Virus record (IMG/VR): IMGVR_UViG_3300028837_002886
Coordinates: 66,932 to 130,931 of that record
DNA from: a virus
Strand: one strand, 5' to 3'
DNA length: 64,000 nucleotides
Shown here: positions 1 to 62,799 of the stretch, in pieces
Numbering within the stretch: the stretch's first letter is position 1
Layout: each line of letters opens with the position of its first letter
Notes under the pieces: generated by a model
Databases searched by the model: none
The model's input: only the letters and a program-made list of their open reading frames with translations
What the model was told of the DNA's origin: nothing
Position numbers and translations under genes: made by a program

Positions 1-449
1 TTATCCAGGATTTTATTAATGGACTTTGTGGGCATGTCTTTTATTTCGCCGCCACCTCTTTGCTGCCCGTACTCAATGATCTTATCTATCGTCTCAGCGA
101 CGGTCATACGGGTAAGGTCCAAGAGCTTTTTGACATTGTTGACTTCTAACTTGAATGGCTCCTCCATGTTTAAATATAGATGCGTCAACGGCGGCCTCTT
201 TGTGTCTACCCACTTAAAATGAACTACCAAACGCGCTTTAGGAAAATTAGTCCTAAGTGGACCGCCTCCTTTGCGATAAAAAATAGGGTCCCACATTCCA
301 GACTCGCCTTCTGTTTCGTTGTCTATTGGCCCTATGCGACTTTTCAGCTCTTTGACTAGCGTCTTGACAAAAGCCGTGGGTTGGTTTGACATAACCTTGG
401 CGGCGTTTACATCCTTAAATTTTTCACTTATCGCTTCTGTTATATTCAT
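1..449 (-). CDS. Hypothetical protein, runs off the window edge (MNITEAISENLKDV...)
   Basis: Translated by hand: ATG at 449 overlaps the TGA of the upstream gene (ATGA); frame open to position 1; absent from the ORF track. Confidence 0.7.
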   Translation of the reverse strand, partial: MNITEAISEKFKDVNAAKVMSNQPTAFVKTLVKELKSRIGPIDNETEGESGMWDPIFYRKGGGPLRTNFPKARLVVHFKWVDTKRPPLTHLYLNMEEPFKLEVNNVKKLLDLTRMTVAETIDKIIEYGQQRGGGEIKDMPTKSINKILD

Positions 450-1090
450 TCTTCAAAACTCGAGTTTATTATTTGAGGTTTAATAGGTTCGCTCCAACTC
501 ATCATTTCTTCGTCATACTCCACGTTGTTGTTCCAGGCGTCTTGTAGTGCTTCTTCCATGGTATCATCACTTACATACTTTCCTAACTCTTGTTCAATCC
601 TGGAGGCAATGCGCGACAGTTCATACGCATAGCTCCAATTCATATTCTTATCTTTTCGGAAAGCATTAACAACTTCTTCACCATACTCTGTTTTAAGATT
701 TTCCCAATACTCATCAGCCGCAAAGCCTATTTCGTCATTCACGTATTCATACTTGGTATCGTCAGACCAATCATTTTCCTTGGCTTCTTTCTCGAGCTCT
801 TCCATGTCAATCCAGTCGCCGTCTTCTATCTCTTTCATATCATTGAGTATTTTTGTAACTTTTTGTTGAGCTTCCCAAACAGTGTCTACAATGGCACCAA
901 CAGATCGAGTCGCGGCCGGTTTGTTTACCGTTTCATAAAAGATATAGTTCACGAAAGGACTGACATCTTCCACGATATTATAGATATCATCCATGAAACT
1001 ATCGACCGCGCCATCGACAACGCTCACCATCCAGCTCGGCATTTTATTGGGCCATTTTATTATGGCATCAATTAGATTTGTGGCGGTCAT
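446..1090 (-). CDS. Acidic hypothetical protein
   Basis: 214-aa ORF in a tightly coupled minus-strand run; ends KPQIINSSFEE (motif B-like). Confidence 0.7.
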   Translation of the reverse strand: MTATNLIDAIIKWPNKMPSWMVSVVDGAVDSFMDDIYNIVEDVSPFVNYIFYETVNKPAATRSVGAIVDTVWEAQQKVTKILNDMKEIEDGDWIDMEELEKEAKENDWSDDTKYEYVNDEIGFAADEYWENLKTEYGEEVVNAFRKDKNMNWSYAYELSRIASRIEQELGKYVSDDTMEEALQDAWNNNVEYDEEMMSWSEPIKPQIINSSFEE

Positions 1091-1430
1091 ATATGCTTTG
1101 TTCCCAGTCAGACTTCATGTCAGCTTTCCATTCCATGGCTTCCTCGTAATCGTTTACTTCTATTATTCTTATATTATGTTTATTCATCTTCTTGCGCAAC
1201 TTTTCTACTTCTCCCCGTTCAGCTGCAACAATCAAAGCATCGCTGCGCAGTAAAGGGCCATAGTCGCTGACCAAAACGATCTGTCGGTCGTTGTGCCTCT
1301 CGATGAACTTTCTGATGGCATCATTGGAGCTGCTAATAGATAACTTGGGTAGATCTTCCATGTGATAAAGCATACGATACCCCTCCCGTGTAGGTCGTAG
1401 TGACTGTCTGTAGGCTTCCATCAAAGTCAT
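1068..1430 (-). CDS. Hypothetical protein
   Basis: 120-aa ORF overlapping both neighbours. Confidence 0.65.
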   Translation of the reverse strand: MTLMEAYRQSLRPTREGYRMLYHMEDLPKLSISSSNDAIRKFIERHNDRQIVLVSDYGPLLRSDALIVAAERGEVEKLRKKMNKHNIRIIEVNDYEEAMEWKADMKSDWEQSIYDRHKSN

Positions 1431-2089
1431 TTGCCACTCCCTGTTAAATACTTTATCAACTCCATTTTAGGATTATTGCTTATATCTATCTTTAGGTAAT
1501 CTTGAAAAACCTCCTGACATGATTCGCCAAAATCATACATTTGGTCAAAATTACTAACATGTCTGTTTATTTGTTTTTGATACCAGCTTATATCATTCCA
1601 TGTTTTTTCTATGTCTTCTATGTGTAAATCGCCATGTTCTATGTCAAGCTTGACGCTTTCCCAAAGACCTAGCTCGTCTACATCCATCTTGCTCGCGATC
1701 TCTTCTAAAAACTCATCGTAACTTTCCTGAAGGTCATTGACATCAACATCTTCGGGTTTCAGCGCTTCGCCCTCTTCCCTGCTGGCTTGTACTATAGAAT
1801 TGACAAGACCCTTGCGAAAGTCGTCGGCATCTCGTACTAAATCTTTAAACCGACGCATGGCCTCTTTCATGGCTTCTTTTTCCTTGCCCAAAGGCAGACC
1901 CACCATTTCGTTTAGTAGTAGCGCGGTGAGAGTGTGAGAGCCCGTATCTTCATATATTCGTTCGGCTATATCATTCTGATATGCCATACTGGCGTCGACG
2001 ACGGCTTCCCATATATCGTTACGCTCTTCAACGGGCAGCAGTTTTTCGTCAGTGGTTACTCTTATATAAAAAGCTTTTATGTTTATCAT
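1427..2089 (-). CDS. Acidic hypothetical protein
   Basis: 220 aa; C-terminus DISNNPKMELIKYL resembles that of 5103..5735 (DITKNPKLEFIKYTF). Confidence 0.7.
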   Translation of the reverse strand: MINIKAFYIRVTTDEKLLPVEERNDIWEAVVDASMAYQNDIAERIYEDTGSHTLTALLLNEMVGLPLGKEKEAMKEAMRRFKDLVRDADDFRKGLVNSIVQASREEGEALKPEDVDVNDLQESYDEFLEEIASKMDVDELGLWESVKLDIEHGDLHIEDIEKTWNDISWYQKQINRHVSNFDQMYDFGESCQEVFQDYLKIDISNNPKMELIKYLTGSGK

Positions 2090-2637
2090 TGTTCCAACAC
2101 GTATTTTATTAATTCGCTTAATGATTTTCTCTTATCAATTTTTACATTTTTAAAGTTTTTCTGGGGACTTGTACACTGTTCATCTACCTTGCTATCAATA
2201 TCTTTTAAAAATTCATCGAATCGTTCCTGAAAACACTCGACATTAAGATCTTCAAGCTTTAGTTCTTTGTTCTCTTTCTCTACCGTCGCGTCGACAGTTA
2301 TAGTCTGGTCTTGTATTTCCTCATTAGCCTCTTGAACCAGCGATGCTGAAATCTTGATTGACTCTGCTATTTCAACAGATCCTTTCCAAGGAGTAAAATA
2401 ATTACCGTCAACAATAACCTCTAATAAAGCCATGTCATATATTTTAAACGAGTCTCCAAACTCTATGAGCGGAGGAACAACAACTTTGGCGGAATCGCCT
2501 TCAACCATTGCCGTAATCGTCGTGCTCAAGCTTTCGGAAGTCGGTAACACCAATTTTACAGTTGGAGTAGAGGCGCTGCCAACAATATTTAGCTTAAAGT
2601 TTAACTTCGTGGATTTATCTTTAAATATTTTAATCAT
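2086..2637 (-). CDS. Hypothetical protein, possibly virion-associated
   Basis: 183 aa; beta-rich N-half; lies downstream of the LamG gene. Confidence 0.6.
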   Translation of the reverse strand: MIKIFKDKSTKLNFKLNIVGSASTPTVKLVLPTSESLSTTITAMVEGDSAKVVVPPLIEFGDSFKIYDMALLEVIVDGNYFTPWKGSVEIAESIKISASLVQEANEEIQDQTITVDATVEKENKELKLEDLNVECFQERFDEFLKDIDSKVDEQCTSPQKNFKNVKIDKRKSLSELIKYVLEQ

Positions 2638-2651
2638 TATTTATTTTGTCG

Positions 2652-5038: not shown

Positions 5039-5102
5039 CTAGTAAGATTAGTTAGCTTATGTATACTGTTACCTCCCAGTTTTATATATTTTATCTTGTG
5101 TT

Positions 5103-8220: not shown

Positions 8221-8400
8221 CTATGTTATATTAAATATTTCTTTCTCTTCTACCTCTTCTCCTGCTAGCTCTTCAAGCTTTTTTATAATGGGTCTAACTT
8301 CTTCGTCTTCTACCCACACTAAGCGTTCTACCATTCTCATCCACGGTAATAAATCTTTAGCAAGCTCAGCTATCTCTTTTCCAAACTCTGTCTTGGTCAT
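8221..8400 (-). CDS. Small hypothetical protein (59 aa, MTKTEFGKEIAELAKDLLPW...)
   Basis: Translated by hand; ATGA overlap with the upstream gene. Confidence 0.6.
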   Translation of the reverse strand: MTKTEFGKEIAELAKDLLPWMRMVERLVWVEDEEVRPIIKKLEELAGEEVEEKEIFNIT

Positions 8401-10021: not shown

Positions 10022-10768
10022 TTATGCGGGCTTGACGCGCTTTTTAGCTTCAGTCTTGGAGATAGGCTTAATTTCGTATGTTCCGTCTTTGTTTACTTTT
10101 TCAATAGCGCCGTATTTCTCGTCATCGCCGATGCGAACGACGCGGCCCGGGACCATTAGATCTTTCTTGCTTGGGGGTTTAGGTTGACCTTGTTGCCTCT
10201 TCTTTTGTTCTTTTTCCAAATGCTTATACAAACCCTCAGTGGTCCATAGCTTTGGATCTTTTACTTTCTTGGCATATCCTTTATCTATTCTCAGACCGGC
10301 ATACTTGCCTGTAGGCATTTTAAGAAGAAGACCAGCAACACTCTTGAGTTCGCCAAGAATGTTTTCATTTATGATCATATCGCCGGCGACGTTATACAAA
10401 TCGTTTGAGAGTTTTCGTCTAGCCGCTCTATCTAAATGAAGTCTTGCAATATGATAAAACTCATGAGCGATGATAAACATTAGTTGTTCGGGTGGGAACG
10501 TATCGATAAAAGCTTCGTTGTAGTAAAAGTTTATTTTGCCGTCCTGTATATTAACGCCCGCGGTTTGTACGTCAGGGTGGTTTTTGATAAATCTACACTT
10601 TAAAAGAAAAGTGGCGAATAAAGCATCCCTCGGAATGAGATGCTGTATCATCGCGCGCAATTTTTCTGGAGGTCTTGTTTCTTCTTGTTCTAACAGCAGG
10701 TTGCCGATCTCGACAAATGGATCTTGTACCCGCTCATTCATTCGTTCAAGTAAACTCTTAAGACTCAC
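10022..10768 (-). CDS. HExxH metallopeptidase (N-terminal half of a DUF2201-type peptidase-vWA protein)
   Basis: TAGVN...YYNEAFI...FIIAHEFYHIARLH...YNVAGDMIIN. Confidence 0.85.
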   Translation of the reverse strand: MSLKSLLERMNERVQDPFVEIGNLLLEQEETRPPEKLRAMIQHLIPRDALFATFLLKCRFIKNHPDVQTAGVNIQDGKINFYYNEAFIDTFPPEQLMFIIAHEFYHIARLHLDRAARRKLSNDLYNVAGDMIINENILGELKSVAGLLLKMPTGKYAGLRIDKGYAKKVKDPKLWTTEGLYKHLEKEQKKRQQGQPKPPSKKDLMVPGRVVRIGDDEKYGAIEKVNKDGTYEIKPISKTEAKKRVKPA

Positions 10769-13070
10769 GCTTTACTCCTGCGAGTTTGAGCATATCTTCT
10801 GTGATTGTTATATCGGGAGTTAGAGGAGAAATAGCCTCTTCCTTTTTGGTTTTCTTTTTCTTTCTCTCGTGAAGGATAAAGTTCTTTGTCTCGGTATTAA
10901 TGAACCGCTGTTTGAGCTCTGGATCTTTAATTCTTACGGCTGCCTTTTCGATAGGCTCATAAGTTTCTCCAGACTTCATCATTTGCATGTACTTCTTTTT
11001 ATCATCTCCAGTTGCTATTTGCTCAAACTGCTTATCGATAGACTGCATGAAGCCATCCCATCCAGCCTTGATGCGATCAATGCCGAGCTGCAACAGGCCT
11101 GCTTTATAATCTATGGCCAGCTGATTCTTCATTTCAAGAGCAGGAGCCAATGACTCAAAGTGGGCTGTAATAATTTCAGCGCCTATGTCTAGGTCCTTAA
11201 CGAATTGACCAACGTTCATGAGGGCTTGAGTCAAAGGATCGCTTTTTGCTGATTCGTAATATTTAATACCCTTTTCCTTCATATATTTCTTCATGGCCGT
11301 TTTGGAACCGAAGTTGGCGATTTCCTGTGCCATTTCATTCATCATAATTTCATGGTCGATGGACTTGCCTTTGATTTTCTCGCGAACACCCTTGTAATTT
11401 AATAGGACATCTCTGGATGAAACCGCTTGCTTTTTGAGTTCTTCATAGTTGAGTACCATTTCGGATACTAGTTCTTCAGAATCTTTGCCTAGAAGTCTAG
11501 GAGCAACGGATTTAAACAAGTCGGCTTGACTGGCTACAATATACGCTCTTGCTCCGACGGCCTCTACATCTTTCATGTCCTTGAATGATTTCTTGCCTAA
11601 TTCCTGATAATTCTTTTTCTGAGCGTCTTCAAGAGCGCTGTACTCTTTCAAGCCCTTTAGTTTGGTCATCCTATCTACAGAAGTCCATGTTGCTGGATCT
11701 AACCAGCCTGATTCGGCTTCGCCGCCGAAACCCTTCATGACTTTCTGAAAGGCCGCTTGAGGATCCTTGCTTTCTTCTGTCCATTTTAGTAGGTTAGATG
11801 TTATGATAGAAAGAACAGGCCCTGTGTTGATTTTCTTGTTTTTGTAATCGATGATGGTGTCTTTCTTGGAGAACTTTAGCCAATCTGGTAAGCTGTACTC
11901 CATTCTCATCTTGTACATAAAACGTCTAAGAGTAGGAGCGTCGAGCTCGTTGACTGCGGTCGCGTTGTCTACTTCGCCCGCGTTGCCGGCTGCGATAGCG
12001 ATTGTATTTTTTGGTAAAACATATGTTCCTATTTTACCTGTAAGCGCCAGGTTCATGGCTGCTTTCATTTGTTCTTGAGAACCAGCGTTGAACTCATCCA
12101 AGAACAATAAGTGCTTCTTCGTGCTGCCTTGCTCTGGCATTACATCCGACACCTGCATTGTAACACCCTTGCGCCCTGTCATTTTTCCTTCCATGTCTAT
12201 AACAGGAAAACCAGCGAGAGTTTCAATAGGCACGTGCTGTATTTGGAGCAATGTTACTTCCCAGCCTCTCTTCTCAAAAAATTCTGTAATGACTTCGGAT
12301 TTGCCAACACCAGGAGGACCATAAAGAAGCATTGACAGCTTTCGCTTTTCGCCAGCTGCGCCTGCTTCGACTATGTCTGCCATATCTTCGAGTGTTTCTT
12401 CCAGGTCGCCGACTGTAATTATACTTTCAGCAACCGGAACGTCTTTTCTTTTACTAAGCTCTGCGGCCATGCTTTGAATGTTGAACTCAGCCTCGGCTTG
12501 TTTTCTGACGCCCATGTATTCCTTCTCTGCCTCTTTGGGTGCCATAACTTCCAAACAAATCTTTTCTAAAAGAATTCTGTCTGCATCGCTTATGGCGTCT
12601 TCGGCGACACCTACCTTGGCGGGTGCCCACAGTGTAGGCCCTAAATAGAATATAGGGACCCCGCCTCTTGGGTGCATCTTGGCTACAGCAACACTACCAT
12701 CTGGCTGCAAATGGCCTTTTATTTTGCCATTCTTGCTGCTCTCGTGTTGATACATCGGCACTTTCTTTTTGCCGCTATAGGTGACGCGCTTCATGTAATC
12801 GAGGTCTGGTGTGACCTTTTCGCCGCGATTGTTATAGAGGGCATATTTGTTATTTACTAACTTACATATCGCAGCATGAAATCTGAACCAGGCTGGCTCA
12901 ATAGCCTTGACTGCTTTTGACATTTTTTCATATATTTTTCTCAAGGCAACAGGAACAGCCGCAAGAGCCTTTTTAACCCCTGCGCCCATCTTTTGAGCTG
13001 TGGCCGGAATGTCAACTTCGTTTAGTTCATCATTCATTTTATCAAGTAGATGATCAAATCCGAGAGCCAT
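10758..13070 (-). CDS. MoxR-like AAA+ ATPase
   Basis: Walker A GPPGVGKS, Walker B LFLDEFN, AAGN, LDAPTLRRF. Confidence 0.9.
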   Translation of the reverse strand: MALGFDHLLDKMNDELNEVDIPATAQKMGAGVKKALAAVPVALRKIYEKMSKAVKAIEPAWFRFHAAICKLVNNKYALYNNRGEKVTPDLDYMKRVTYSGKKKVPMYQHESSKNGKIKGHLQPDGSVAVAKMHPRGGVPIFYLGPTLWAPAKVGVAEDAISDADRILLEKICLEVMAPKEAEKEYMGVRKQAEAEFNIQSMAAELSKRKDVPVAESIITVGDLEETLEDMADIVEAGAAGEKRKLSMLLYGPPGVGKSEVITEFFEKRGWEVTLLQIQHVPIETLAGFPVIDMEGKMTGRKGVTMQVSDVMPEQGSTKKHLLFLDEFNAGSQEQMKAAMNLALTGKIGTYVLPKNTIAIAAGNAGEVDNATAVNELDAPTLRRFMYKMRMEYSLPDWLKFSKKDTIIDYKNKKINTGPVLSIITSNLLKWTEESKDPQAAFQKVMKGFGGEAESGWLDPATWTSVDRMTKLKGLKEYSALEDAQKKNYQELGKKSFKDMKDVEAVGARAYIVASQADLFKSVAPRLLGKDSEELVSEMVLNYEELKKQAVSSRDVLLNYKGVREKIKGKSIDHEIMMNEMAQEIANFGSKTAMKKYMKEKGIKYYESAKSDPLTQALMNVGQFVKDLDIGAEIITAHFESLAPALEMKNQLAIDYKAGLLQLGIDRIKAGWDGFMQSIDKQFEQIATGDDKKKYMQMMKSGETYEPIEKAAVRIKDPELKQRFINTETKNFILHERKKKKTKKEEAISPLTPDITITEDMLKLAGVKRES

Positions 13071-13080
13071 TGTATTCCTC

Positions 13081-14187
13081 CTAAAACTTCGGCTGGTCGT
13101 ACATTATATGATTACCGTCTTTCTTCGGGTATCTGGTGTTAGGGTCTTGAGTTATTACGTAAAAAATATTATCTTCACTCGTGCCATAGACTTTTCCTAA
13201 AGTCTGTTTCGTCATCGGACTAAAGCCGCCATCGGTGAAGATCACCAGAAATGGTGCTGTTGAGTATTTAGTGCCCAGCAAAGACCTAACTACCTGCGTG
13301 TCCGATGGACCCAACTGTAGCAAAAATTTGCCGTCTTTCTCTTCTTTGATTAAAGTTTCGTCGATATATCTAAATATAGAGCCAGGGTCAGTGCCTCCAC
13401 CACCCTTGACTTCTATCTTTTTGCTCGGTTTAAATTCCATGAATTGGTGTACCGTAGTATCCCACTCCATAGCAAACACTTTACCAGAAACACCACCTGC
13501 TGCCGCCTCAAACGTCTTGGCTACAGAGTTGAGTTCGTTGACTACGTTTTGCATGTCGTCAGCAGTGATAGAACCAGAAGTATCAAATGCGAATATCATG
13601 TAGATATAATTCTTTTTTGGTTTTCTTAGAGGCGCCTTCGCTATAATACCGACCTGTGCTTGTGCCTTCCATGGATACATAAGATAGCTTGGATGCTGTT
13701 TTAATTTCTTACCGACCTTATCGGCAAAAAATCTGACTTTTTGTTTGAGCAATCTTGGCCAATCGATTTTGGCATCAATCAAAGGTCCAAAAACTTGTAA
13801 ACTGTTTCCGGCCTCTTTACCTGCCTTACCTCCCATACGATGAGTTTTGCGTTTAGCTTCATCATAAACCCGTTTTATAACACCTCTGGCTGTGCCGTCG
13901 CTCTTGTCGATTATTTTTTCGGTATCGGTTAGAGTGCCACGTTTCTTTTCGCCCTCTTTAGGTTTGGCCTCTCCGGGCTTACCTTTTCCTGGTTTACCTT
14001 CTGCCGGCAGCTCCTCGACACCCTTTTTATCCTCGCCTTCTCCGGGTTGTGGCTGTCCGGCCGGAGGAGGGCCAAAAGGCCATACCTCAACATCTTCGGG
14101 GGCCTGTACGGCACCACCTTCGCCCGGCGCGCCTTGCGGCTGACCGGGCACTATAGGTGTTAGTTCATCGAAAGTATAGGTTGGCAT
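13081..14187 (-). CDS. vWA domain protein (C-terminal half of a DUF2201-type protein)
   Basis: MIDAS DTSGS, GGGGTD, IFTDG; IDWPRLL; G/P/E/K-rich linker at the N-terminus. Confidence 0.85.
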   Translation of the reverse strand: MPTYTFDELTPIVPGQPQGAPGEGGAVQAPEDVEVWPFGPPPAGQPQPGEGEDKKGVEELPAEGKPGKGKPGEAKPKEGEKKRGTLTDTEKIIDKSDGTARGVIKRVYDEAKRKTHRMGGKAGKEAGNSLQVFGPLIDAKIDWPRLLKQKVRFFADKVGKKLKQHPSYLMYPWKAQAQVGIIAKAPLRKPKKNYIYMIFAFDTSGSITADDMQNVVNELNSVAKTFEAAAGGVSGKVFAMEWDTTVHQFMEFKPSKKIEVKGGGGTDPGSIFRYIDETLIKEEKDGKFLLQLGPSDTQVVRSLLGTKYSTAPFLVIFTDGGFSPMTKQTLGKVYGTSEDNIFYVITQDPNTRYPKKDGNHIMYDQPKF

Positions 14188-15258: not shown

Positions 15259-15277
15259 AGCACCATTATCTTTACGA

Positions 15278-17638: not shown

Positions 17639-17667
17639 ACGTTCCTCCGTTTATATATGATCTACGA

Positions 17668-21405: not shown

Positions 21406-21411
21406 GTATAC

Positions 21412-48491: not shown

Positions 48492-48509
48492 TTTAAACTC
48501 CTGAATAAA

Positions 48510-49013: not shown

Positions 49014-49871
49014 TTATTCGTCTTCGAGTTCAAGCATTAGTTTTTTTTCAAATTCATCTATGTTATCAGAATCGTCTTCGGTCTCCATTGTTGGAGTAGG
49101 CTCTGCTTCTTCTTTCTTCTTTTTTGGTTTTGTTTGAGGTTTCTTTGTGTCTGATTTTTCTTTAACAACGGGCTTCTTTTCAGAAACAGCCTCTGTTGCT
49201 TTATTGTCTTCGCCGTAATACTCTTCGAGGAATTGCTCCAGAGCTTCTTTCATAACATCAGGTTCTTTGAAACTTACAAGAGTATCCAAATCTTTCACAT
49301 TAGAAAGGATCTCAGCAATCTCCTCGTTATCATCAGACAGCGCGGATGGGTTTTTCATTGGACGAGAATCATCGTAATTAGGATAATCGCCTTGTTTCTT
49401 TCTTATGAGTTTGAAATCATATCCTTTTTCAACATCATCCAGCGCACCGTATTCTTCATCGAAGTAGTAAGAAAGAACTTTTTCCCATACCTTTGGACCT
49501 GTTATATACTGCTTAACTTCTGTTGGATCTTCTGCTTTGCGATCAACAATGTTATATATATACTTTTTGTTGACTTTGATCTTTCTGGCTATTTCAGTAT
49601 CCAACTCGGTGTCTGCTGCGTAACGCCTTTTGGTTTCTTCGCAGATAGGACACCTCTTGCCTTCCGTCAAACGAGGACACCAGAAAAAGTTGTCTTCACC
49701 AAACCTGTGACTTCCTGTTTCCTTGTAGAATACCTCTTTCCCTTCCATTGGCGGTAAAATACGAATGATGTTTTCTTCCTCTGGGGGATACCAGAATGAG
49801 CTTGAGAAGCCGCGATTCTTGTGCTTATCGTACATTTCGCGAAGCTTATCAAGATTTGTGTGTCTTGCCAT
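49014..49871 (-). CDS. gp32-like single-stranded DNA-binding protein
   Basis: IRILPP, H...CP...CPICE, GYDFKL, YPNYDDS, acidic tail. Confidence 0.85.
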   Translation of the reverse strand: MARHTNLDKLREMYDKHKNRGFSSSFWYPPEEENIIRILPPMEGKEVFYKETGSHRFGEDNFFWCPRLTEGKRCPICEETKRRYAADTELDTEIARKIKVNKKYIYNIVDRKAEDPTEVKQYITGPKVWEKVLSYYFDEEYGALDDVEKGYDFKLIRKKQGDYPNYDDSRPMKNPSALSDDNEEIAEILSNVKDLDTLVSFKEPDVMKEALEQFLEEYYGEDNKATEAVSEKKPVVKEKSDTKKPQTKPKKKKEEAEPTPTMETEDDSDNIDEFEKKLMLELEDE

Positions 49872-49876: not shown

Positions 49877-50529
49877 TTATTCTCCCTCGGACTTGGTTTC
49901 TTCTATATATGCCTCATCGGGTTTCTTTTTACGATAGGCGTTCCGGAAGTTGCTCACTGCCGACATGATTCTCTTATCCTCTGAAGGTTTTTTCAGAACA
50001 GGCTCGGCTTTGGCTCTTTCCTCTGTTTTCTTTTTTAAAAACGGAAGTTTCATTTTTTCCTCTCTTGAATATTCTGTTGATTTTTTATCAATAAACCGTT
50101 TTACTGTAATAAACGGAAGTCCATCGAATAACGCTTCAATAGCGTTTAATTTTATTCTATTTATTGTCTTCATGGACCTCAAGTACTCCGTCTCTCATCA
50201 ATCTCTTCATTTCGTGGGTAAACCCATCGACGTCGATTGTTTCACCGGATTTGATTACGTGATTCTTACCCTTAAACCGCAGAGTAAGTGTGTTTTTGGT
50301 GTTGTTAATGAGCGTTATTTTTTCATACTCAAGCAGCGTTTTAGCCACTTTGGTTAGGATCTTCCTTTTGGCCATTCCTTAGAATCTCCTTGGCTAATAA
50401 CATTTTCTTCTGGCTCTCTGTTAGCGGGTTGCCGCCCATACTAATAAATACCGGTTTACCATCTGGTCCATGGAACCAACTAAAAGGAACTTCAATCTGT
50501 CTAGCTGTATTCTCCACAATCTTCACCAC
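49877..50529 (-). CDS. Three small hypothetical proteins (49877..50182, 50157..50375, 50341..50529)
   Basis: ORF track. Confidence 0.55.
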
Positions 50530-50549: not shown

Positions 50550-50882
50550 TTATATATGCTTCTTCCACCCCTTTATCAGTTGATGAAATGGTGCCCATGT
50601 TGCCTCGGGTAATATGTCTTTTATCGCCCTCGCTCCTACCGGATTTATCGAATGAACCACTATTTGAGCGTGAATGTCTTTCTCCGCTATAACCTTGGCC
50701 AGTTCACACCCTGTTACTGGTGTGCCCAAATCGTGATCTATAAAAATGATATCGTATTCGTGCTCATCCAACGAAGCAATAGCCTTCTTTGCGCTGTAGT
50801 ATATGTGCAGCTCATGACCAGGTAGATACTCTTTGAATGCTTCTTGTCTCTGAGGTGAATCTTCTAATATGAGCACTCTCAT
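50550..50882 (-). CDS. Cyclic-phosphate-processing receiver domain protein
   Basis: LILEDSPQR, IDHDLG, VHSINPVG. Confidence 0.75.
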   Translation of the reverse strand: MRVLILEDSPQRQEAFKEYLPGHELHIYYSAKKAIASLDEHEYDIIFIDHDLGTPVTGCELAKVIAEKDIHAQIVVHSINPVGARAIKDILPEATWAPFHQLIKGWKKHI

Positions 50883-50886: not shown

Positions 50887-51744
50887 TCACTCGTGTAACA
50901 GTATTTTAGCTTTGTCTTTCTTTCTTTTTGCTCTATGTAGCTCTATTTCGCGCTTGATTTTCTCACGCCAATTCGGTATAAACTCATCACACAACGCGTC
51001 GACTATTTCCTGTCTTTTGTTTCTGAGCAAATCCAGACAATCACGACAGGCCACGGTACTCTGTGACGAAAAATCGCGATTTTCGTGGTGTTGCTGGAAA
51101 GACTCAAAGACGCTTTGGATTATGTCATCCACGAAGTTTTGTTTATCTTTTTTTCCCAAAAAGCTTTCTGTGGCGGCTTCCAATTGGTCTATATAATCAG
51201 GACTTAATCTGTCTCCGCAAAAATCACAGTAGTATCTAATCATTCCCGGGCCTCAGCAATAATTTCGCATAATATTTTTTATACTTCTCTTTAGTGACTT
51301 TCCGGTAACCGCGGCCATTGAGCGTCTTTTTTAGATATATATCATGCACATCTCTCGCGAAAGTGCTATGTTTATCAACGCCTTGAACAAACCACCATGC
51401 GGCTTCCTGGGCCGAATCTGAACATTCCCAGTAATCTGTTATGTTAACAAGTGTGTCTTTGTGGATCCAAATAGAATCCAGTTGTATGTTATTCACCGCC
51501 GCTACCAATCCAACACCAGCTTGATTTTAGCCAGTTCTTTTTTCTCCGGTTTTTTACATTTTACTAGTATCCGTTTCATGCTCCAGGGAGAAATACCGTT
51601 TATCGTGCGAGATCGATAGGGATACCTTGAGTTGGTTAGATTATTTCTGCACGCTACATATACATTCCAAAGATCTAAATCGTCGGATTCTATTTTCAAG
51701 ACCGCCCCTCCGTCAACGAATATGTCTCCATCGATCAGTTTCAT
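50887..51744 (-). CDS. Three small proteins ending in motif A (50887..51243, 51236..51508, 51502..51744)
   Basis: KAKILLHE, YAKLLLRPG, LAKIKLVL. Confidence 0.65.
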
Positions 51745-53849
51745 ATCTCAGGCACCATTATTTTGTTTATAATGAGATCACCATCCCGCATCTTGCCCAT
51801 TTTGAAAACCAAAACTTTATTTTTGATCAGGTTACGAGCACTTTCGTTAAATTGATGCGCAAACAACGGATAACGCCTTACTCCGTTCTCATCCCTAATC
51901 GATACAAAAGCCATCATGTTGCCGTTTCTATCGCGCTTTCTTGTTACATCAGTTATAATGCCGATCAAAGCCCTACTATCAAGCATGCTTTTCAGCTGTG
52001 CTATCTCATCGGCCTTTTCTTCATACAGTATCATTGATATATCCAATGTCAATAAGTCCTGTAATAACTCCAGCTTTTCCTGCTTGTTCCAATCTGTTCC
52101 TTCCCTGGTCTTGATGAACTGTTCAAATGGAACTTTTGCGCCCTTCTTGCGCCACTCATCATAGTTAGTATACAGCGTCCTGCGATTGCCGTAAAGCTTA
52201 TCAAAAGCGCCCGCTTGTATCAAGCTGTCAAGAACCCTCTTGTTTACTTTCGTGCCGGTTTTGTGCTCCTTCAATTTGGTGAAAAAGTCAGTAATACTCT
52301 CATGAGGCGCGTGCTCGGAAATCCATTTAGCGGGAACCACGCCGCAGTTCTTGACATGGCTCAATCCATAAATGACGGTCTTGTCGTCTATAATGCTAAA
52401 GTGCGTTTTACTTTTGTTTACGTCCGGATATAATACTTCTATACCAAGCTGCTTACATTCAGCAGTCAGCCTATCCACAGGGGTTTTGTCAGAGTTCAAC
52501 GAGGCGCACATAAACTCAACAGGATAATGGACCTTGAGCCACGCGGTGTAATACGCAATGGTCGCATACGATAAAGAGTGGCTGCGGTTGAACTGGTAAC
52601 CGGTCTGTTTGATAAGATATTCCCACAGCAGCCTCGTCTCTTTCTGATTTCTGTTTTTCTTTTGACAGCCCTCGAAGAACTCCTGCTCCCACTTCTTTTT
52701 ACCCTTGGTGTCATTCTTGAACTTGGAGTGCCATTTTTCCATATAGCGCCTGAGTGAGTCCGCGCGGCCCAAACTAATTCCGGATGCCATGTGCGCAATG
52801 TTGATGGTTTGTTCCTGGAACACCAATAGACCCAAAGTAGGTTTTAATACCTCTTCTAGAACAGGATGCGCATACTTGATCTCCTCTTCGCCGTGTCTGC
52901 GTTTGATGTAGTTGTTTATAATAGGAATAGAACCTGGCCTGAATAAAGCATTCATGATTACAATATCCTCAAATATTTTAGGTTTCAGCTTTTGTAAATA
53001 ACCTTTCATCGATGGACTTTCAAACTGAAACACAGAGGTGGTCAGGCCTTTGCCAAATAATTTATAAACATCTGGAACCTCGAAGTTTATATTATGTATG
53101 TCTATTTCTTTTCCATGCCTCTCCTTTATAAAGTCCAGCGTATCATGAATAATTTTGAGAGTAGACAGTCCGAGTATGTCAAGCTTCAACAGTTTCATTT
53201 CTGCTATTGACTCACCATCAAACTCAGTCAAAAGCATGTCATCATCCCTGTTGTACTGACATGGAATATATTTTTGGACAGCCTTGTCCGCTATGATGAT
53301 GGCGGCTGCGTGTTTGCCATAGTTACGCATCTGTCCTAACAGTTTCTCAGCAAACTTGAAGATTTCAGGATACTGGTGATAAGCGCTGCTTTCGTTCCAG
53401 TTAGTTTCGTCTATGTTCTTGGATATAGCAATAGCTTTCTGGGCGGGTATACCATGTATTCTCGCGGAATCCTGAAAAGCTGACTTGATGGAATAAGTAA
53501 TGACGTTACACACCTGAGCGACGTTCGTCTGACCAAATCTTCGCTTGATGTAATCAATGACATCACCTCTGCGGGCATCTTCAAAATCAATGTCTATATC
53601 AGGAGCTTTGCCAGATATCGTCAATTTTTCAGGTTCGTCATTTATGGGATCATGATGAATGTATCCCAACAAATACCAAATCAGGATATTGGGATGCGGG
53701 TCGGTTCCGTTATCAACATCTTTCAAAAGGTTGGTGTGAGTTATGATCTCATATTTCTTGAACTCTTTTAGTTCATAATCCAATCGCTGGCGATGCTTCT
53801 CGTCGTTTATGCCTTTTTCTTTCAACAGGCGGTATAGTTTTTCTTTCAT
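51741..53849 (-). CDS. dnaE: DNA polymerase III alpha (DnaE), C-terminal part: catalytic palm, fingers, HhH, OB
   Basis: PDIDIDF, GKHAAAII, KLDILGLSTL, VFQFES, FQEQ, YQFNRSH, MAFVSIRD. Confidence 0.92.
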   Translation of the reverse strand: MKEKLYRLLKEKGINDEKHRQRLDYELKEFKKYEIITHTNLLKDVDNGTDPHPNILIWYLLGYIHHDPINDEPEKLTISGKAPDIDIDFEDARRGDVIDYIKRRFGQTNVAQVCNVITYSIKSAFQDSARIHGIPAQKAIAISKNIDETNWNESSAYHQYPEIFKFAEKLLGQMRNYGKHAAAIIIADKAVQKYIPCQYNRDDDMLLTEFDGESIAEMKLLKLDILGLSTLKIIHDTLDFIKERHGKEIDIHNINFEVPDVYKLFGKGLTTSVFQFESPSMKGYLQKLKPKIFEDIVIMNALFRPGSIPIINNYIKRRHGEEEIKYAHPVLEEVLKPTLGLLVFQEQTINIAHMASGISLGRADSLRRYMEKWHSKFKNDTKGKKKWEQEFFEGCQKKNRNQKETRLLWEYLIKQTGYQFNRSHSLSYATIAYYTAWLKVHYPVEFMCASLNSDKTPVDRLTAECKQLGIEVLYPDVNKSKTHFSIIDDKTVIYGLSHVKNCGVVPAKWISEHAPHESITDFFTKLKEHKTGTKVNKRVLDSLIQAGAFDKLYGNRRTLYTNYDEWRKKGAKVPFEQFIKTREGTDWNKQEKLELLQDLLTLDISMILYEEKADEIAQLKSMLDSRALIGIITDVTRKRDRNGNMMAFVSIRDENGVRRYPLFAHQFNESARNLIKNKVLVFKMGKMRDGDLIINKIMVPEI

Positions 53850-53864: not shown

Positions 53865-55871
53865 TTATGATTTAGTAACGTCATGTAATACCTTTGCGAG
53901 AGTCTCGAGCGTAAACGGTTTCTGTATAACATCCTTGAAACCATAATCTTTGTAGTTGCTCATAGCATTGGATGTAGAATAGCCGCTTGAAACAATAGCC
54001 TTGACCTGCTTGTCTATTTCCAGGAGCCTCTTTATGGTCTCAATACCATCCATACCCCCAGGCATAGTAAGATCTATAACAACGGCATCAAAGTGCTTAT
54101 CTATCATGGAACCCTTGTAGGTCTCTAATGCCGCCTCACCGCACGACACCACGGTAACAGTGTAGCCCAAGTCTTCTATTAGATCCTTGGCTATCTCTCT
54201 AACCGGCGCCTGATCATCTACAAAGAGCACGTTGCCTCGGCCATTTAGGTGTGCATCCAAATCTTCTTCTTTTATTTCTTCTAAAGTCGTGGGTAAATAC
54301 AAAAAGAATGTGGAGCCTTTGCCTAACTCGGAATCAACCCACACGCAGCCTTCGTGATTTTTGATAACAGAATAGGCGGTGGCCAATCCAAGCCCGCTTC
54401 CTGCGTGTTTAGTTGTGAAATAGGGATCAAATATTTTGTTGAGGTGTTCCTTTGGTATGCCTATGCCTTTGTCAGCAATCGTAACTTCCAAATATGCACC
54501 CGGCTTTAGATGAGCATCGCAAGGTACGCCCATGGGCGCCTTCACCTCTCTCGCCGCTAATTTTATGACGCCGCCTGTGGGCATGGATTGCATAGCGTTT
54601 ATCAATATGTTTTGTATAACCTGAGATATTTGACCAGGATCAATGTGAGCGTTAGGTATGTCTTCTGGTATGTTGTATTCTATTTTAGAGTTACAACCAC
54701 TAGTGGTAAAAGTGGTTGTCTCCATTATAATTTCCTTTATGGATACTGTTCGACGAACTGGCAGACCTCCACTGGAGAATGTCAACAACTGCTGCGTCAG
54801 ACTTTTAGCGCGCTTGCAGGCCTTTAGTGCCTGTACAAGTCTGTTTATTACTTCATTTTCCAGTTTTAGATCTGGCTCGTCGAGAACCTGGTCAGATTTT
54901 ACATGTCTGCGGCTATGCATCAAAGCCAGTTCGACATTGCCACTGATAGCCGTCAGTATGTTATTGAAATCATGGGCAATACCACCGGCCATTACGCCAA
55001 CTGCTTCCAGTTTTTGGGATTTAGATAACTCCAACTCGGTCTTTCTCTGGAGTGTAATATCTCTAAACACCGCGACAGCACCGACAATATCGCCTTCTTT
55101 ATTTTTGATTGGCGCTGCTGTATTATCGATAAGCCGGCTTTTGCCTCGTTTAGATATAAGAACTACATCTTTTTTAAGTTCAATAATCTTACCTGTCTCT
55201 AGAGCCTTTTGTAACGGGTTAGGGGCCATTGCGTTGGTCTTTTCATCAAACAAATGAATGATGGCATCAAAAGGCTTTCCTATCACTTCCTTCTGTTTCC
55301 AACCAAGTATGTGTTCCGCCATGCGGTTTAGTATAGTTATTTCGCCTTTGGCACCTACAGCGACAACACCATCGCTGATGCTCTTCAATGCAATATTTAA
55401 TCGTTCGGTTTCTTCGGCCAAGGCTCGCTGCGCCTTTACCCTTTCGGTAATGTTGCGATGCTGCACTATAGCATTGACAACTTTGTTCTTAATTATAATA
55501 GGCGTGATAGTTACATCTAACGCGAGGGCGCTGTGCATCGTAAGGTGTGCGTGTTTTATCTCTGCAGGAGTATAATCTAACATAAAATGCACAGGTTGTT
55601 TTTCATAGAAAACCTTATCTATGAGAGGAATCAAATTCTCTTTGTGAAACTCTTCATCCTTGAATAGATTATATACTCCAACTACTTGTTCATCCGTGAT
55701 ATCAAACAGATCGCGGTTGACCTGGTTCTGCATAATCATTGTGCCCTTTTCGTCCGACAACCACATACTGTTTGGGCTGTTTTGTATGATTTTGCCGCAG
55801 AACTTATTTATATCTTCTTTTGTGATTTTGTTATTAGTATTTAGTAACAGGTCGTTTTTTCTTTTTCTCAT
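53865..55871 (-). CDS. Hybrid sensor histidine kinase (PAS-PAS-HisKA-HATPase-REC)
   Basis: AGGIAHDFNNIL, NILINA, DKGIGI, FTTK..GSGLGLA; REC FVDD...IDLTMP...KPF. Confidence 0.95.
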   Translation of the reverse strand: MRKRKNDLLLNTNNKITKEDINKFCGKIIQNSPNSMWLSDEKGTMIMQNQVNRDLFDITDEQVVGVYNLFKDEEFHKENLIPLIDKVFYEKQPVHFMLDYTPAEIKHAHLTMHSALALDVTITPIIIKNKVVNAIVQHRNITERVKAQRALAEETERLNIALKSISDGVVAVGAKGEITILNRMAEHILGWKQKEVIGKPFDAIIHLFDEKTNAMAPNPLQKALETGKIIELKKDVVLISKRGKSRLIDNTAAPIKNKEGDIVGAVAVFRDITLQRKTELELSKSQKLEAVGVMAGGIAHDFNNILTAISGNVELALMHSRRHVKSDQVLDEPDLKLENEVINRLVQALKACKRAKSLTQQLLTFSSGGLPVRRTVSIKEIIMETTTFTTSGCNSKIEYNIPEDIPNAHIDPGQISQVIQNILINAMQSMPTGGVIKLAAREVKAPMGVPCDAHLKPGAYLEVTIADKGIGIPKEHLNKIFDPYFTTKHAGSGLGLATAYSVIKNHEGCVWVDSELGKGSTFFLYLPTTLEEIKEEDLDAHLNGRGNVLFVDDQAPVREIAKDLIEDLGYTVTVVSCGEAALETYKGSMIDKHFDAVVIDLTMPGGMDGIETIKRLLEIDKQVKAIVSSGYSTSNAMSNYKDYGFKDVIQKPFTLETLAKVLHDVTKS

Positions 55872-58730: not shown

Positions 58731-59951
58731 TTATCCTAAGAATTTTATTGTTTTACCGCCTAATCTTTCTGGATTTAAGAAGCGCTCAAACTGTAACTTG
58801 TGTACAATAGGATCAACATCTGTTATGTTCAGGGCATAGGCTATAAGAGATCCTGCTGCGCTTCCCCTGCCAGGTCCTACATAAATATTTTCAGACTTGG
58901 CCCAGCCAACTATATCTGCCACTACTAAGAAATAAGAAGAAAATCCTGCGCTATAGATGATCTTGAGTTCATAAGCCAATCTCATCATGTAGGTGTCATT
59001 TCGCAAGCATCTCCTATCCAGACCCTCTACGCACTTTTTGCGGAGTATCTCATCAAGGTCGGCGCCCTCGAACTCTGGAATAGGAGGCACGATATAATCA
59101 TGCTGCTTAATATCAAACACCTCTATTTTATCGGCTATCTTTACGGTCGTATCACACCACCCCTCAATGTCCTTTTTATCGTAGCCGGTGTTTATGCCTT
59201 CTCTGATGATTTCTTCTCTTGAGTGCAAATATATATTGTCTTCGTCGAATTGAAGCCCTTTGTCGTCGCCTACTTTACCGCCAGTATTGACCAACAGCAG
59301 TTTGGCGTGATCGTCTTTCTGATCTGCCGTTATATAGTGGGCATCAGCGGTGATAATGGCTGGAACCTTCAACATTTTCCAGAACTTGTATAGTTTTATT
59401 TCTATGGCTTTTAATCTCTCGGTCTGATGTGGTTGAAACTCTATATAAAAGTCATCGCCAAATACATCAAGATACCAATCTAGGTTCCTCTTGGCCGCTT
59501 TTATATCATTGTTTATCAACATGCTTGTTACATCGTTGGCAAGACAGGCGGTTGTGGCTATTATATTTTTACTGTACGCCTTCAAGGTCTCTCTATCTAT
59601 ACGCGGTCTTTTATAAAAACCATAACGATGACCAATATATTGCATCTGCATTATGTTACGATAACCTTCGATGTTTTTCGCCAACAGTACAACATGAAAA
59701 CGTTTTTCTCCCTTTGGTTTGACTTTCAGATCATCAACCATATAGGCCTCAACACCTATCAACGGTTTGATCTTGTATTTCTCGGCAAGGTGCCAGAACT
59801 CATAAACTCCTGACATTGTTCCATGATCGGTTATAGCTAAGGCAGGCTGCCTTAGTTCTTCTGCTACATACTTAAGGCGTGCTTTTTTCGTCCCTAGCCC
59901 ATCGAGTGCACTAGAATCGGTGTGTACGTGAAGATTTACGAAGTTATCCAT
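58731..59951 (-). CDS. dnaE: DNA polymerase III alpha (DnaE), N-terminal part: PHP domain plus start of palm
   Basis: HVHTDSSALDG, AITDHG, GVEAY, TADAHY, GPGRGSAAGSL, FERFLNPER, then stop. Confidence 0.92.
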   Translation of the reverse strand: MDNFVNLHVHTDSSALDGLGTKKARLKYVAEELRQPALAITDHGTMSGVYEFWHLAEKYKIKPLIGVEAYMVDDLKVKPKGEKRFHVVLLAKNIEGYRNIMQMQYIGHRYGFYKRPRIDRETLKAYSKNIIATTACLANDVTSMLINNDIKAAKRNLDWYLDVFGDDFYIEFQPHQTERLKAIEIKLYKFWKMLKVPAIITADAHYITADQKDDHAKLLLVNTGGKVGDDKGLQFDEDNIYLHSREEIIREGINTGYDKKDIEGWCDTTVKIADKIEVFDIKQHDYIVPPIPEFEGADLDEILRKKCVEGLDRRCLRNDTYMMRLAYELKIIYSAGFSSYFLVVADIVGWAKSENIYVGPGRGSAAGSLIAYALNITDVDPIVHKLQFERFLNPERLGGKTIKFLG

Positions 59952-60470: not shown

Positions 60471-61088
60471 ATGAGAAGAATACTGTTTTCACTTTTAGCT
60501 TTGTTGTTTTTATTCGGTCTCGGTTCCGGATTGTTCGCTCAGAAAGATGCCTATAGATGGTACGTCCGAACTATTGAGCTTAAAGTTACATTCTGGGAAG
60601 ATGACGAGCAAAAGACGGAATATCGTGAAGAATATCTCTTATATTTTGGCAACGAAAAGACGTTAGAAGTAGAAGCTCAACTCGCAAGATCTAGAATGGG
60701 TTTTGGAGCCATGGTGTTCCATCCTATACCAGAAGTGACAGAAAGCATGAGCTTCCAGGCCCCCGAAAGATGGTACGTGCAACCATACGACCATAGTAAG
60801 CATGATTCTCCTAAATTATATCCATTGTTTGAGGATCGCGTATGGAACAACATGCCGCAGAACATCAAGCTCATCATAATGGCCCTGGATTACAAAGATG
60901 ACGATCTTATTCTTATTCATATGAGAGGCAACACTGGCAGCATTAGTATTTGTTACCACCCTAAGTTTGACGAAGACAAGGAGTTTTATGGGGCAAAATT
61001 GGAGCAGCTTTTGGATTATCTAAACAACCTGGAAGATCCTGAGAAAGAAATACCTAATCCAATTTTACCAATTAAGAACACAATATAA
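60471..61088 (+). CDS. Secreted protein, paralogue of 23388..24029
   Basis: Signal peptide ending GLFA; SD AGGAGG; shared motifs. Confidence 0.8.
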   Translation: MRRILFSLLALLFLFGLGSGLFAQKDAYRWYVRTIELKVTFWEDDEQKTEYREEYLLYFGNEKTLEVEAQLARSRMGFGAMVFHPIPEVTESMSFQAPERWYVQPYDHSKHDSPKLYPLFEDRVWNNMPQNIKLIIMALDYKDDDLILIHMRGNTGSISICYHPKFDEDKEFYGAKLEQLLDYLNNLEDPEKEIPNPILPIKNTI

Positions 61089-61101
61089 AGATAATTTTGT
61101 T

Positions 61102-61725
61102 ATGACTAGAGAAGAGTTTCTGTCCATCGAACATCCATCTATAGAAGAGTACCGCTATTCAGACGTTGTGGTGTACTTTTTGTGGAATAAACCAAGCAAA
61201 AGTAGTATCACCTTGAAAGGCTCAGTATGGATCTACACGGATGGCAACAAAAGCATTGCACTAAAGAACGAAGTATTAAAGGAGCTTAAAGATCTTGAAG
61301 CCGCGGCTTTTTCTATAAGAAAAAAGAATTTAATATTGTTAAACCCCGGTAAAAAATATGTTATAGGTCGACTTTTCGGTGAAAAGGTGCGACAGGAATA
61401 AAATATGAAATCAGCTGACACCATAAGCGATGTCGCAGTCCCGTTTCTTGTTAAAAGCAAAAGCGGTCAAGGCTCTACAAAAAGCTGGGAATACATATAC
61501 GTAACAGAGGTCTACGATCGATTAGCCAAGAAAGAAAGTAAAGTCGGGGCTGTTGTGAGACTAATGCGGTTCGGTAGTAACGTTGGCGTATTAATAGAAA
61601 AGGGTAAAGAAGCTCAATACATGTGGTCACATATATTTTCACCGAGGGCGCAACAGGTTGAGATGAAACGAGGTAAAAAAGATCTACTTGTTGACCTTTT
61701 CACTTTTCCTGACAGAATGATTTAA
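61102..61725 (+). CDS. Two small proteins ending in motif B (61102..61401, 61405..61725)
   Basis: KKYVIGRLFGE, KKDLLVDLFTF; AAAGATAA at 61087. Confidence 0.65.
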
Positions 61726-62154
61726 ATTTTTTCTTAACTCCTTCTTCATGCCCAACTGGATTTCCTTGTTGGTCTCGTGTTCAATTACTTCATAATTATG
61801 ATCAAAAAACTTGATGTTTTTTACCCAATCATTACGGCTGTCATCTGAGCTTATCATTTTTGCTATATCGGAGCGCTTCTTTTCCTTGCGCATGTTGTCC
61901 ATTACATCGCGACGAATGACTTGATAGAAATAAGAAAACGCATACTTGTTTTTGGTGGGATCATACTTGTCCAGCTTTTTCCAGGAAAGTATAACAGCGC
62001 TCTGAATATAGTCATCGCGCTTGGAGTAGGCGATGTCAAAGTGGTGAGTTATCTGGCTGCCCATTTCATAAAAGTTGCTGAGCAGTTGCTGCATCTTCTC
62101 CGGATCCCTTCGGTCATTATAAAGCTTTTCCATTTCCTTCTTGTCAATGTTCAT
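61684..62154 (-). CDS. gp55-like (late) RNA polymerase sigma factor
   Basis: Region-2-like DDYIQSAV...KYDPTKNKYAFSYFYQVI; short, no region 4; next to primase. Confidence 0.7.
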   Translation of the reverse strand: MNIDKKEMEKLYNDRRDPEKMQQLLSNFYEMGSQITHHFDIAYSKRDDYIQSAVILSWKKLDKYDPTKNKYAFSYFYQVIRRDVMDNMRKEKKRSDIAKMISSDDSRNDWVKNIKFFDHNYEVIEHETNKEIQLGMKKELRKNLNHSVRKSEKVNK

Positions 62155-62162
62155 GTTTTCTC

Positions 62163-62799
62163 CTAGTCTTTTAATAAAAACTTAGCTTTTTCTTTCTTAG
62201 TTGTAGCCACTTCCCAAAATTTCGCCTCGCACATGTAACTTAGCTGTATTGGAACCGCTCGTGTTCTAGAGCCACTGCCATCAGTTGCCTCTAGAATCAT
62301 CGAGTCCTTGCCTTTTTCCAAGACCTTGTACAGACCTGAGTGCGTTCGAATCAGGTCGCCTTCTTTCATGTTTTTGTACGGCGACAATTTTCTCATTATG
62401 CGATTTGCCGCCTTTTGGGCCTTTGAAGGATTCAACTATTATATCCGCCTTGTCTTTAAAATATGCTTCGAAAGGTCGCCAAGTGTCTAGGCTCTCTTTT
62501 CTTTTTTTCTTTTTCGACAAAAACTATACCCTCCCTAACAATAGCATCTTGGCCGCCATTGCTTTTCCTTTTTTGCATTCTACAATAATAACTTCGCGCC
62601 TCTCAACCGCCGCGGCGAGCCACTCGACCCCACAAGAGGTAGTGTAACCAGAAGGAAGGCCCTTAGTTTTTACAAGATCTATTATTTTTATCGACTCGCC
62701 GTCGTTATACCGGTAATCTCCCTCACGGAACCCTGTTACCACATAGTAATCTTTTTGCTCTTTTAAATAAAAAACATCGTACCTTTCGGGTTCATACAT
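62163..62799 (-). CDS. Two small proteins ending in motif A (62163..62435, 62524..62799)
   Basis: KAKFLLKD, AAKMLLLG. Confidence 0.6.

Follow-up and report, generated by a model that had tools for sequence, protein, structure and literature searches.

Short terminal peptide motifs on many small proteins of an uncultured virus and their association with upstream promoter motifs

Description

Many small accessory proteins predicted in an uncultured virus carry a short peptide of one of two kinds at their very N- or C-terminal end, and which kind they carry is associated with the promoter motif upstream. The DNA examined (the window, 64,000 nucleotides (nt)) is the right half, bases 66,932-130,931, of the single 130,931-bp IMG/VR record IMGVR_UViG_3300028837_002886 (G000), whose completeness is put at about 70% by CheckV; positions are those of the window, with (+) or (-) for the strand. 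The first peptide, motif A, has the core AKxLL, and the second, motif B, ends in phenylalanine (KxxhhxxhF, where h is hydrophobic). The explanation that we consider best, with a probability of about 0.5, is that the A and B tags are portable docking modules set on unlike protein bodies, with tag class tied to promoter. The tagging is unusual in its scale, and an address function for it is put forward as a hypothesis.

Genes were predicted over the whole record using a self-written caller, which combines codon log-odds, ribosome-binding site and start codon scores and chooses greedily, and the G000 calls were corrected by hand at gaps (4 removed, 6 added), resulting in 219 genes on which all counts depend. 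Proteins shorter than 45 amino acids (aa; 8 of the 219) were excluded from the unbiased pattern scan and from the test of the LxE leader described below, leaving 211. Relatives were obtained by scanning viral contigs with an alignment of topoisomerase homologues, single-protein scans having given nothing; the three contigs found, G001 (189 kb), G002 (388 kb) and G003 (121.5 kb), were read nearly whole (381,000 of 388,268 bases for G002) and share 87 of the 219, 41 and 2 of the G000 genes, respectively.

Results

Within the last 20 aa, AK.LL occurs in 10 of the 219 proteins, and within the first 20 aa in 11; over 2000 shuffles of each terminal 20 aa, the count averages 0.24 and never exceeds 4. 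Every 5-residue pattern with at most two wildcards was also compared between termini and interiors, blind to the motifs that an earlier sequence-only reading of the window had proposed, and AK.LL again came out as the most terminus-enriched pattern (N-terminal 10, C-terminal 9, interior 1, expected 0.32, p=1.5e-27). The terminal AKxLL motif of that reading is thus borne out by both tests; its equal frequency at the two termini had been missed. Amino acid composition was considered as a source of the tags and ruled out by the shuffles and the interior rates. Lysine follows the alanine in 19 of 22 terminal A..LL matches. A wider pattern, A[KR]x[LIMVF][LIMVF], selects 31 proteins, 23 of them inside the window, and their bodies, stripped of the tag, fall into 29 clusters (BLAST E<0.1, with those bodies alone as the database). 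By eye, the bodies are zinc-ribbon-like, membrane-helix, beta-rich or helical, and one matches repeat proteins.

Both termini are used, with 56 N-terminal and 59 C-terminal tags counted in three genomes. N-terminal tags start most commonly at residue 7, and C-terminal tags leave 1-10 residues, most commonly 2, ahead of the stop. In the flanks, position -4 is often lysine and positions -5 and -1 are often hydrophobic, and the N-terminal A copies in G000 continue into N-P, which is read as a helix stop or breaker. The tags have a net charge of +1.5 over 11 residues and a mean hydrophobicity of about 0; their helical hydrophobic moment is 0.38 +/- 0.15 vs 0.33 +/- 0.16 for all terminal windows, with 37% of the controls reaching the tag mean. 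All four alanine codons are used evenly in the motif and leucine is encoded by both CTN and TTR, matching genome-wide synonymous usage, so that selection acts on the peptide. By this codon evidence, the tags are shown to be conserved as peptides and not as DNA or RNA.

The following A-tagged genes of the window lie on the minus strand. C-terminal tags are found at 17668-17955 (AKILL, 95 aa; the G001 orthologue ends in AKDLL), 18256-18582 (AKWLL, 108 aa), 18579-18803 (AKRLL, 74 aa), 20452-20844 (AKLLL, 130 aa, a hand-added gene), 28851-29270 (AKLML, 139 aa, with a beta-rich body), 45197-45430 (AKRML, 77 aa), 50341-50526 (AKEIL, 61 aa), 50887-51243 (AKILL, 118 aa), 51236-51508 (AKLLL, 90 aa), 62163-62435 (AKFLL, 90 aa, hand-added) and 62524-62799 (AKMLL, 91 aa). 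N-terminal tags are found at 8221-8400 (AKDLL, 59 aa), 25441-25650 (AKRLL, 69 aa), 46728-46988 (AKAIL, 86 aa), 47321-47533 (AKTLL, a 70-aa membrane-helix protein), 48510-48956 (AKKLL followed by CxxC, 148 aa) and 50157-50375 (AKTLL, 72 aa; the G001 orthologue has ARNLL), and four tandem genes (27278-27490, 27451-27678, 27700-27930 and 27902-28060) each have a basic stretch, A[KR]xLL and NP at the start. Three further tails belong here: SKAFL at 17939-18274 (111 aa), A-like and outside the strict pattern; AKGKL at 26327-26749 (a 140-aa zinc-ribbon-like protein whose G001 orthologue ends in AKRFL), also A-like; and AKKIF on the 229-aa protein at 45900-46589. In the model that AlphaFold gives for 28851-29270, the beta body is confident as far as about residue 90 and the predicted local distance difference test score (pLDDT) is below 50 from residue 119 on; a free tail would be compatible with it.

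Motif B is likewise enriched: 15 of the 219 proteins have K..hh..hF among their last 20 aa, where shuffles average 0.44 and never exceed 4. A looser form of the pattern has 34 holders, at least 5 of which are membrane helices and a few others doubtful; the remaining holders group into about 17-20 clusters by BLAST. The motif is real by these counts, yet it is partly a family trait, and the earlier description of the tag holders as unrelated, accurate for motif A, holds for motif B in part only. Motif B may be of the same flavour as the I-K-x-L-F that relatives carry at either terminus. A run of B-tagged genes on the minus strand (21446-21715, 21984-22400, 22397-22645, 22642-22902 and 22904-23152, of which those starting at 22397 and 22642 are paralogues) includes a variant of the tag at 21712-21987 (-), and the switch that had been noticed at 23328-21446 is found, with motif B on 5 of 7 genes. 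Two paralogue pairs are interleaved on the minus strand, 34270-34623 with 35169-35516 and 34817-35161 with 35516-35836, and in the alignment of the 34270-35836 family the tail holds 3 of the 5 invariant columns (F..., K..., F). Other B tags are TLAAIF at 36464-36763 (-, 99 aa), ILNHIF at 43035-43391 (-, 118 aa), VIGRLF at 61102-61401 (+) and LLVDLF at 61405-61725 (+). An N-terminal LxE leader, which the sequence-only reading had set apart as a further class, did not hold up and is not counted as a tag here: 22 of 211 proteins have L.E within residues 2-13 vs 13.4 +/- 3.4 in interior windows, and its share is equal in the three promoter classes introduced next (G 10/86, S 4/30, T 6/57).

Genes were classed by whichever motif lies closest upstream on the same strand, ignoring terminators: S for sigma70-like, T for CATATATA and G for AAGATAA. 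Strict TTTACA-N16-18-TATAAT has six coding-strand sites, each directly ahead of a start. Sigma70-like elements of the window, all on the minus strand, are found at 21412-21440 (6 nt ahead of the ATG and probably leaderless), 29280-29309, 48509-48537 and 62822-62851 (TTTACA-N17-TATAAT in each) and at 28300-28328 (TTTACA-N17-TATATT). Of the 25 copies of CATATATA, 22 are on the coding strand, and the motif is upstream of 14 genes; one copy is at 17652-17659 (-), and others within 70 nt of a start are at 18831, 26175, 28214, 41244, 43016, 45442, 49904, 50551 and 60431. AAGATAA is mildly enriched in the window (33 sites vs 22.0 +/- 4.6; 2 of 100 shuffles reach 33) and ranks first among 7-mers in the 70 nt ahead of starts, where it precedes 19 genes vs 2.9 expected; 43 of its 54 genome copies are on the coding strand, with the intergenic consensus (C)AAAGATAAT. 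Every AAGATAA site reported earlier exists. The copy at 23336-23342 (-), AAGATAA(T), is head to head with that at 23354-23360 (+), one is at 5091-5097 (-), and others within 70 nt of a start are at 6732, 9999, 14664, 15266, 17668, 40323 and 44762 (-) and at 38374 and 61088 (+).

Several -10-like elements end 5-9 nt ahead of the ATG. At 21405-21440, 15258-15272, 23328-23342 and 61088-61102 the distance is 6-7 nt with no Shine-Dalgarno sequence between, and because these elements lie so close to the ATG their messages are probably leaderless. Replication and nucleotide genes are in units behind CATATATA, AAGATAA lies ahead of tail genes and the MoxR gene set, and the units behind sigma70-like sites include those of the topoisomerase and the sigma factor. 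From this gene content, classes S, T and G are read as early, middle and late, respectively. As in a T4-like temporal programme, the genome has -35/-10 promoters of the host type together with -10-like elements specific to the phage, and it encodes a phage sigma factor; this protein (Sigma70_r2, 61684-62154, -) is itself behind a sigma70-like promoter and is a candidate for reading one of the phage-specific promoter classes.

Tag class and promoter class are associated in G000. Class S has 12 A tags and 1 B tag, class T has 14 and 5, class G has 3 and 19, and genes without a class have 2 and 5; A tags are thus divided 26 S/T vs 3 G and B tags 6 S/T vs 19 G (Fisher p=1e-6). The classes are concordant for 45 of 54 tags, and none of 218 circular shifts of the tag vector along the gene order, which retain the clustering of tags, reaches 45 (mean 24.0, maximum 43). 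Counted per transcription unit (46 units), A tags are present in 12 of 20 S/T units vs 3 of 19 G units (p=0.008), and the A vs B comparison gives p=0.057, or 0.034 once the 5 membrane-helix false positives are removed. The association has the same direction in G001 (A 18 S/T vs 8 G, B 8 vs 14, Fisher p=0.041) and G002 (A 13 S/T vs 30 G, B 9 vs 75, Fisher p=0.012), where 46 IKxLF tags are behind G and 0 behind T. As judged from motif positions, the link between tag and promoter holds in G000 and is weaker in the two relatives; the earlier claim that tag class follows promoter is therefore sustained for G000, while the segregation is not sharp in the relatives. A run of A proteins had also been ascribed to the promoter at 21440. 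Five A or A-like proteins do occupy 20844-17668, but not behind 21440 alone, as CATATATA at 18831-18838 is inside the run.

The tags recur in the relatives with differences between lineages. In G002 the unbiased scan ranks AK.LL first (N-terminal 22, C-terminal 17, interior 5; 39 termini) and IK.LF is also high (N-terminal 15, C-terminal 10, interior 3). IK.LF is the top pattern in G001, but 6 of its 10 copies are from one paralogue family; the looser A pattern is present in 26 of 327 G001 proteins. Two more contigs, found via the tubulin gene, have AKxLL and IKxLF termini as well. G003 instead has N-P-S-x-R on 56 of 205 proteins (N-terminal 11, C-terminal 45, interior 5), written with both serine codon families (AGY and TCN) and both arginine families (CGN and AGR). 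The G003 tag has the fuller form hydrophobic-N-P-S-x-R, is often right at the stop codon and falls mostly in the first 63 kb; in the first 20 kb the majority of genes bear it. The three upstream motifs are all enriched in G001, including CATATAT and CTTTACA, and AAGATAA is in G002 too, being the first or second upstream 7-mer in both.

Of the 37 A or A-like holders 10 have a G001 homologue, as do 4 of the 25 holders of motif B, vs 87 of 219 for all genes, and by this measure the tag holders are a fast-turnover part of the genome. Where a G001 homologue exists, the A tag is kept at the same end in 9 of 10 cases, the tenth being a 55-residue open reading frame (ORF) that stops ahead of the tag. 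Three metagenomic homologues of 28851-29270 have AKIIL, AKTIL and STLML, so that A-K is kept in 2 of 3, and in each of three phages the tail of 45900-46589 fits A[KR]x[IL]F (ARKIF in G001 at 56% identity, AKELF in G002 at 29%). The G002 large terminase (Pfam Terminase_6N, L114:7136-8992) has AKALL on a 37-residue N-terminal extension that the G001 terminase lacks.

Discussion

If the tags are docking modules, each peptide would be a portable short linear motif read by a common partner, so that all the fast-evolving proteins of one temporal class could be managed by the phage as a set; stability, localisation, assembly or packaging are candidates for what is handled. In G000, AKxLL is concentrated behind host-type TTTACA-N17-TATAAT and CATATATA promoters, in units that also hold replication and nucleotide genes, and the F-ending tag (hydrophobic-hydrophobic-x-x-hydrophobic-F) behind AAGATAAT, which is also ahead of tail genes. 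A fuller version, which strikes us as doubtful, is a peptide address code with AKxLL for early/middle and hydrophobic-K-x-L-F for late proteins, at either terminus, each with its own receptor that would sort, time or package up to a quarter of the proteome, and rewritten between lineages, as with NPSxR in G003. Under such a code, new genes would enter a class just by gaining the tag, as the G002 terminase appears to have done.

Several points weigh against docking modules tied to promoter class. Family searches for a tag reader found no candidate that reads the tags, and because of this "address tag" stays a hypothesis. For a clamp of the beta or gp45 type, no match to PF02768, PF00712 or PF02916 was found in the records searched, G000 being about 70% complete; bacterial microcompartment (BMC) shell proteins (PF00936) and encapsulin (PF04454) had no match above the cut-off among the phage genes of the four records, where a host shell is possible; and a J-domain was found in G002 only, with none in G000, G001 or G003. 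The MoxR/vWA/peptidase set is present in G000 and G001 and has weak homologues in G002 and none in G003, despite the NPSxR tags there, a sample of four genomes that weighs neither for nor against it as reader. A complex model of the receiver-domain protein (50550-50882) with its tagged neighbour (50157-50375) scored 0.01, which bears neither way on binding. Motif B is in part a trait of paralogue families (g17-21, g119/120, g154/157 and g156/158), with about a third of its holders being tandem paralogues, and its looser pattern picks up the membrane helices noted above. The AlphaFold model of the B family was unusable (mean pLDDT 44), and in that of 28851-29270 (4 sequences) the tag helix, residues 123-133, has a pLDDT below 50, too low to tell a free helix from a packed one. 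The promoter classes come from motifs alone and the units were built without terminators. In the relatives the circular shifts are marginal (23 of 326 in G001 and 30 of 631 in G002 reach the observed value), and 30 of 52 G002 A tags are behind AAGATAA. Every gene call, finally, is from a simple self-made caller on an incomplete genome.

By analogy, the closest precedent among phages would be the capsid targeting sequence (CTS) of T4, where small proteins that are otherwise highly diverse likewise share one short conserved peptide. The T4 CTS is N-terminal only, is removed by the prohead protease after LxE and is on a handful of proteins, whereas the tags here are at either end of about 30 proteins per genome, the A tags are mostly behind early/middle-type promoters, and LxE is not enriched by promoter class. 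The nearest cellular precedents would be clamp-binding pentapeptides and microcompartment encapsulation peptides. Terminal peptides that bind a hub include the clamp motif QL[SD]LF, the gp45-binding tails of T4 and the acidic tails of T7 gp2.5 and gp4. Like the tags, the clamp motif is a terminal pentapeptide with two final hydrophobic residues, and it is common to unrelated clients of one hub; positions 1-2 here are A/I-K and not Q-hydrophobic, and the clients are far more numerous and are small accessory proteins, not replisome enzymes. Encapsulation peptides are short terminal helices at the N- or C-terminus of unrelated cargo, set off from the body by long linkers, of about 18 residues and amphipathic without sequence conservation (PMC4594438). 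The position at either end fits these, as would the N-P after N-terminal tags if it is a helix breaker, and the one tag helix predicted has a pLDDT below 50; the core of 5 near-invariant residues, the ordinary amphipathicity and the lack of a shell gene match (PF00936, PF04454; four records) differ. In group 2.2 jumbo phages, a MoxR AAA+ and vWA-metallopeptidase pair has been proposed to act in virion assembly and proteolytic processing, with MoxR as an assembly chaperone working with the peptidase (Iyer et al., 2021; PMC7824862); tags are absent from the passages of that paper that treat it. A similar set is encoded in G000 at 10022-14187, with the vWA-like protein and the metallopeptidase as separate genes where those passages describe one fused protein; G003 has no match to the MoxR protein. 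A full-text literature search found no description of the motif, of shared terminal motifs on small phage proteins or of such phage targeting signals.

Other origins of the tags are less probable. The motifs, motif B foremost, could be the last remnant of a few fast-diverging paralogue families, with the terminal helix belonging to a small beta-barrel fold. The tandem paralogue sets among the B holders, the invariant tail columns of the 34270-35836 family and a K-G-D-x-hydrophobic, beta-barrel-like N-terminus seen by eye in many A and B holders all fit this; however, A tags are at either end of zinc-ribbon, membrane-helix, repeat and terminase proteins, the A bodies lack BLAST similarity to one another, and one fold cannot explain a tag on a terminase extension, which makes common descent unlikely as a general account. 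Host protein-quality machinery might read the tags, as degrons, protease-adaptor tethers or chaperone sites that set the lifetime or folding of early proteins, a special case of a common reader in which the reader is the host's and nothing is sorted. DnaK-binding peptides have basic flanks around a leucine core, and the tag may resemble both these and ClpX N-domain tether motifs. The basic flank (+1.5 over 11 residues), the leucine-rich core, the terminal position at either end, the holders' location mostly in early/middle-type units and the J-domain protein of G002 would agree with such a role, which we nevertheless regard as quite unlikely: the near-invariant Ala-Lys is more specific than these sites are said to need, and the family search places no J-domain in the other three genomes.

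A lipid-binding role is very unlikely. Proteins such as MinD, FtsA and SepF have terminal amphipathic helices, at either terminus, that are like hydrophobic-K-x-L-F with basic neighbours, and the tags could be generic membrane-targeting helices of this sort, being also found at either end; but a hydrophobic moment of 0.38 against 0.33 in controls and a mean hydrophobicity of about 0 are poor signs of one, and strict A-K conservation would be unexpected. That the tags are a translated promoter, operator, terminator or recombination site at gene boundaries is scarcely credible. They do lie near gene ends and close to neighbouring start codons, but their distance from the terminus varies, their codons follow genome synonymous usage with leucine as both CTN and TTR, and G003 uses both codon families for serine and for arginine; a nucleic-acid element was ruled out on codon usage, as far as can be judged from the DNA.

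Small orphan genes without a known function make up most of the gene content of large phages. If a five-residue peptide groups such proteins by handling and by timing, it would be the first handle on dozens of them at once. It could then predict class membership in metagenomic phages and direct foreign proteins to the reader's destination, and the differences between lineages suggest that the strategy may be general and overlooked.

Other genome features

The sequencing runs with DNA matching G000 are marine-sediment metagenomes, two of them possibly from the sample behind the record, and the search of sequencing runs listed no matching RNA runs. The G+C content is about 40%, the minus strand carries nearly all genes, and the tail and baseplate genes are in the first half of the record, whose left end (record bases 1-1695, ahead of the window) has about 1.7 kb without any ORF of positive coding score. 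No close relative was found in the GenBank phage collection (megablast, and tblastn with the topoisomerase), in which the DnaE-like protein has matches at only about 30% identity. An SLT transglycosylase (31328-32209), the Shine-Dalgarno signal upstream of starts and the host-type promoters together indicate that the host is bacterial.

Two genes about 5 kb apart (51741-53849 and 58731-59951) share the DnaE-type polymerase, one having the PHP/N-terminal part and the other the finger/HHH part. Between them lie small genes, a dCMP deaminase and a hybrid histidine kinase (53865-55871); the G001 match to the second part is in two pieces inside a single 885-aa open frame. The full-length topoisomerase IB (18791-20455) is of the eukaryote/thaumarchaeon type; apart from viral or metagenomic relatives, few in number and 56-60% identical, its best named matches are to Nitrosopumilus at about 42-43%. 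The MoxR ATPase is at 10758-13070, next to the DUF2201 vWA-like protein (13081-14187) and the DUF2201_N metallopeptidase (10022-10768), and a second, smaller MoxR gene is about 5.3-6.4 kb ahead of the window start. The stand-alone receiver domain (cREC_REC, 50550-50882) is in the middle of an A-tag cluster, and its G002 homologue is within the MoxR/vWA/peptidase cluster. Hsp20 (40732-41175) and a Toprim primase (62792-63865) are also encoded. The tubulin/FtsZ homologue (41988-42986) is kept in G001, G002 and two more viral contigs, with a conserved C-terminus, x-K-[FI]-L-[ND]-V, that is tag-like in look, and the gp32-like single-strand-binding protein (49014-49871) has an acidic C-terminal tail with F-[EK]-x-[KQ]-L-[ML], conserved across three phages.

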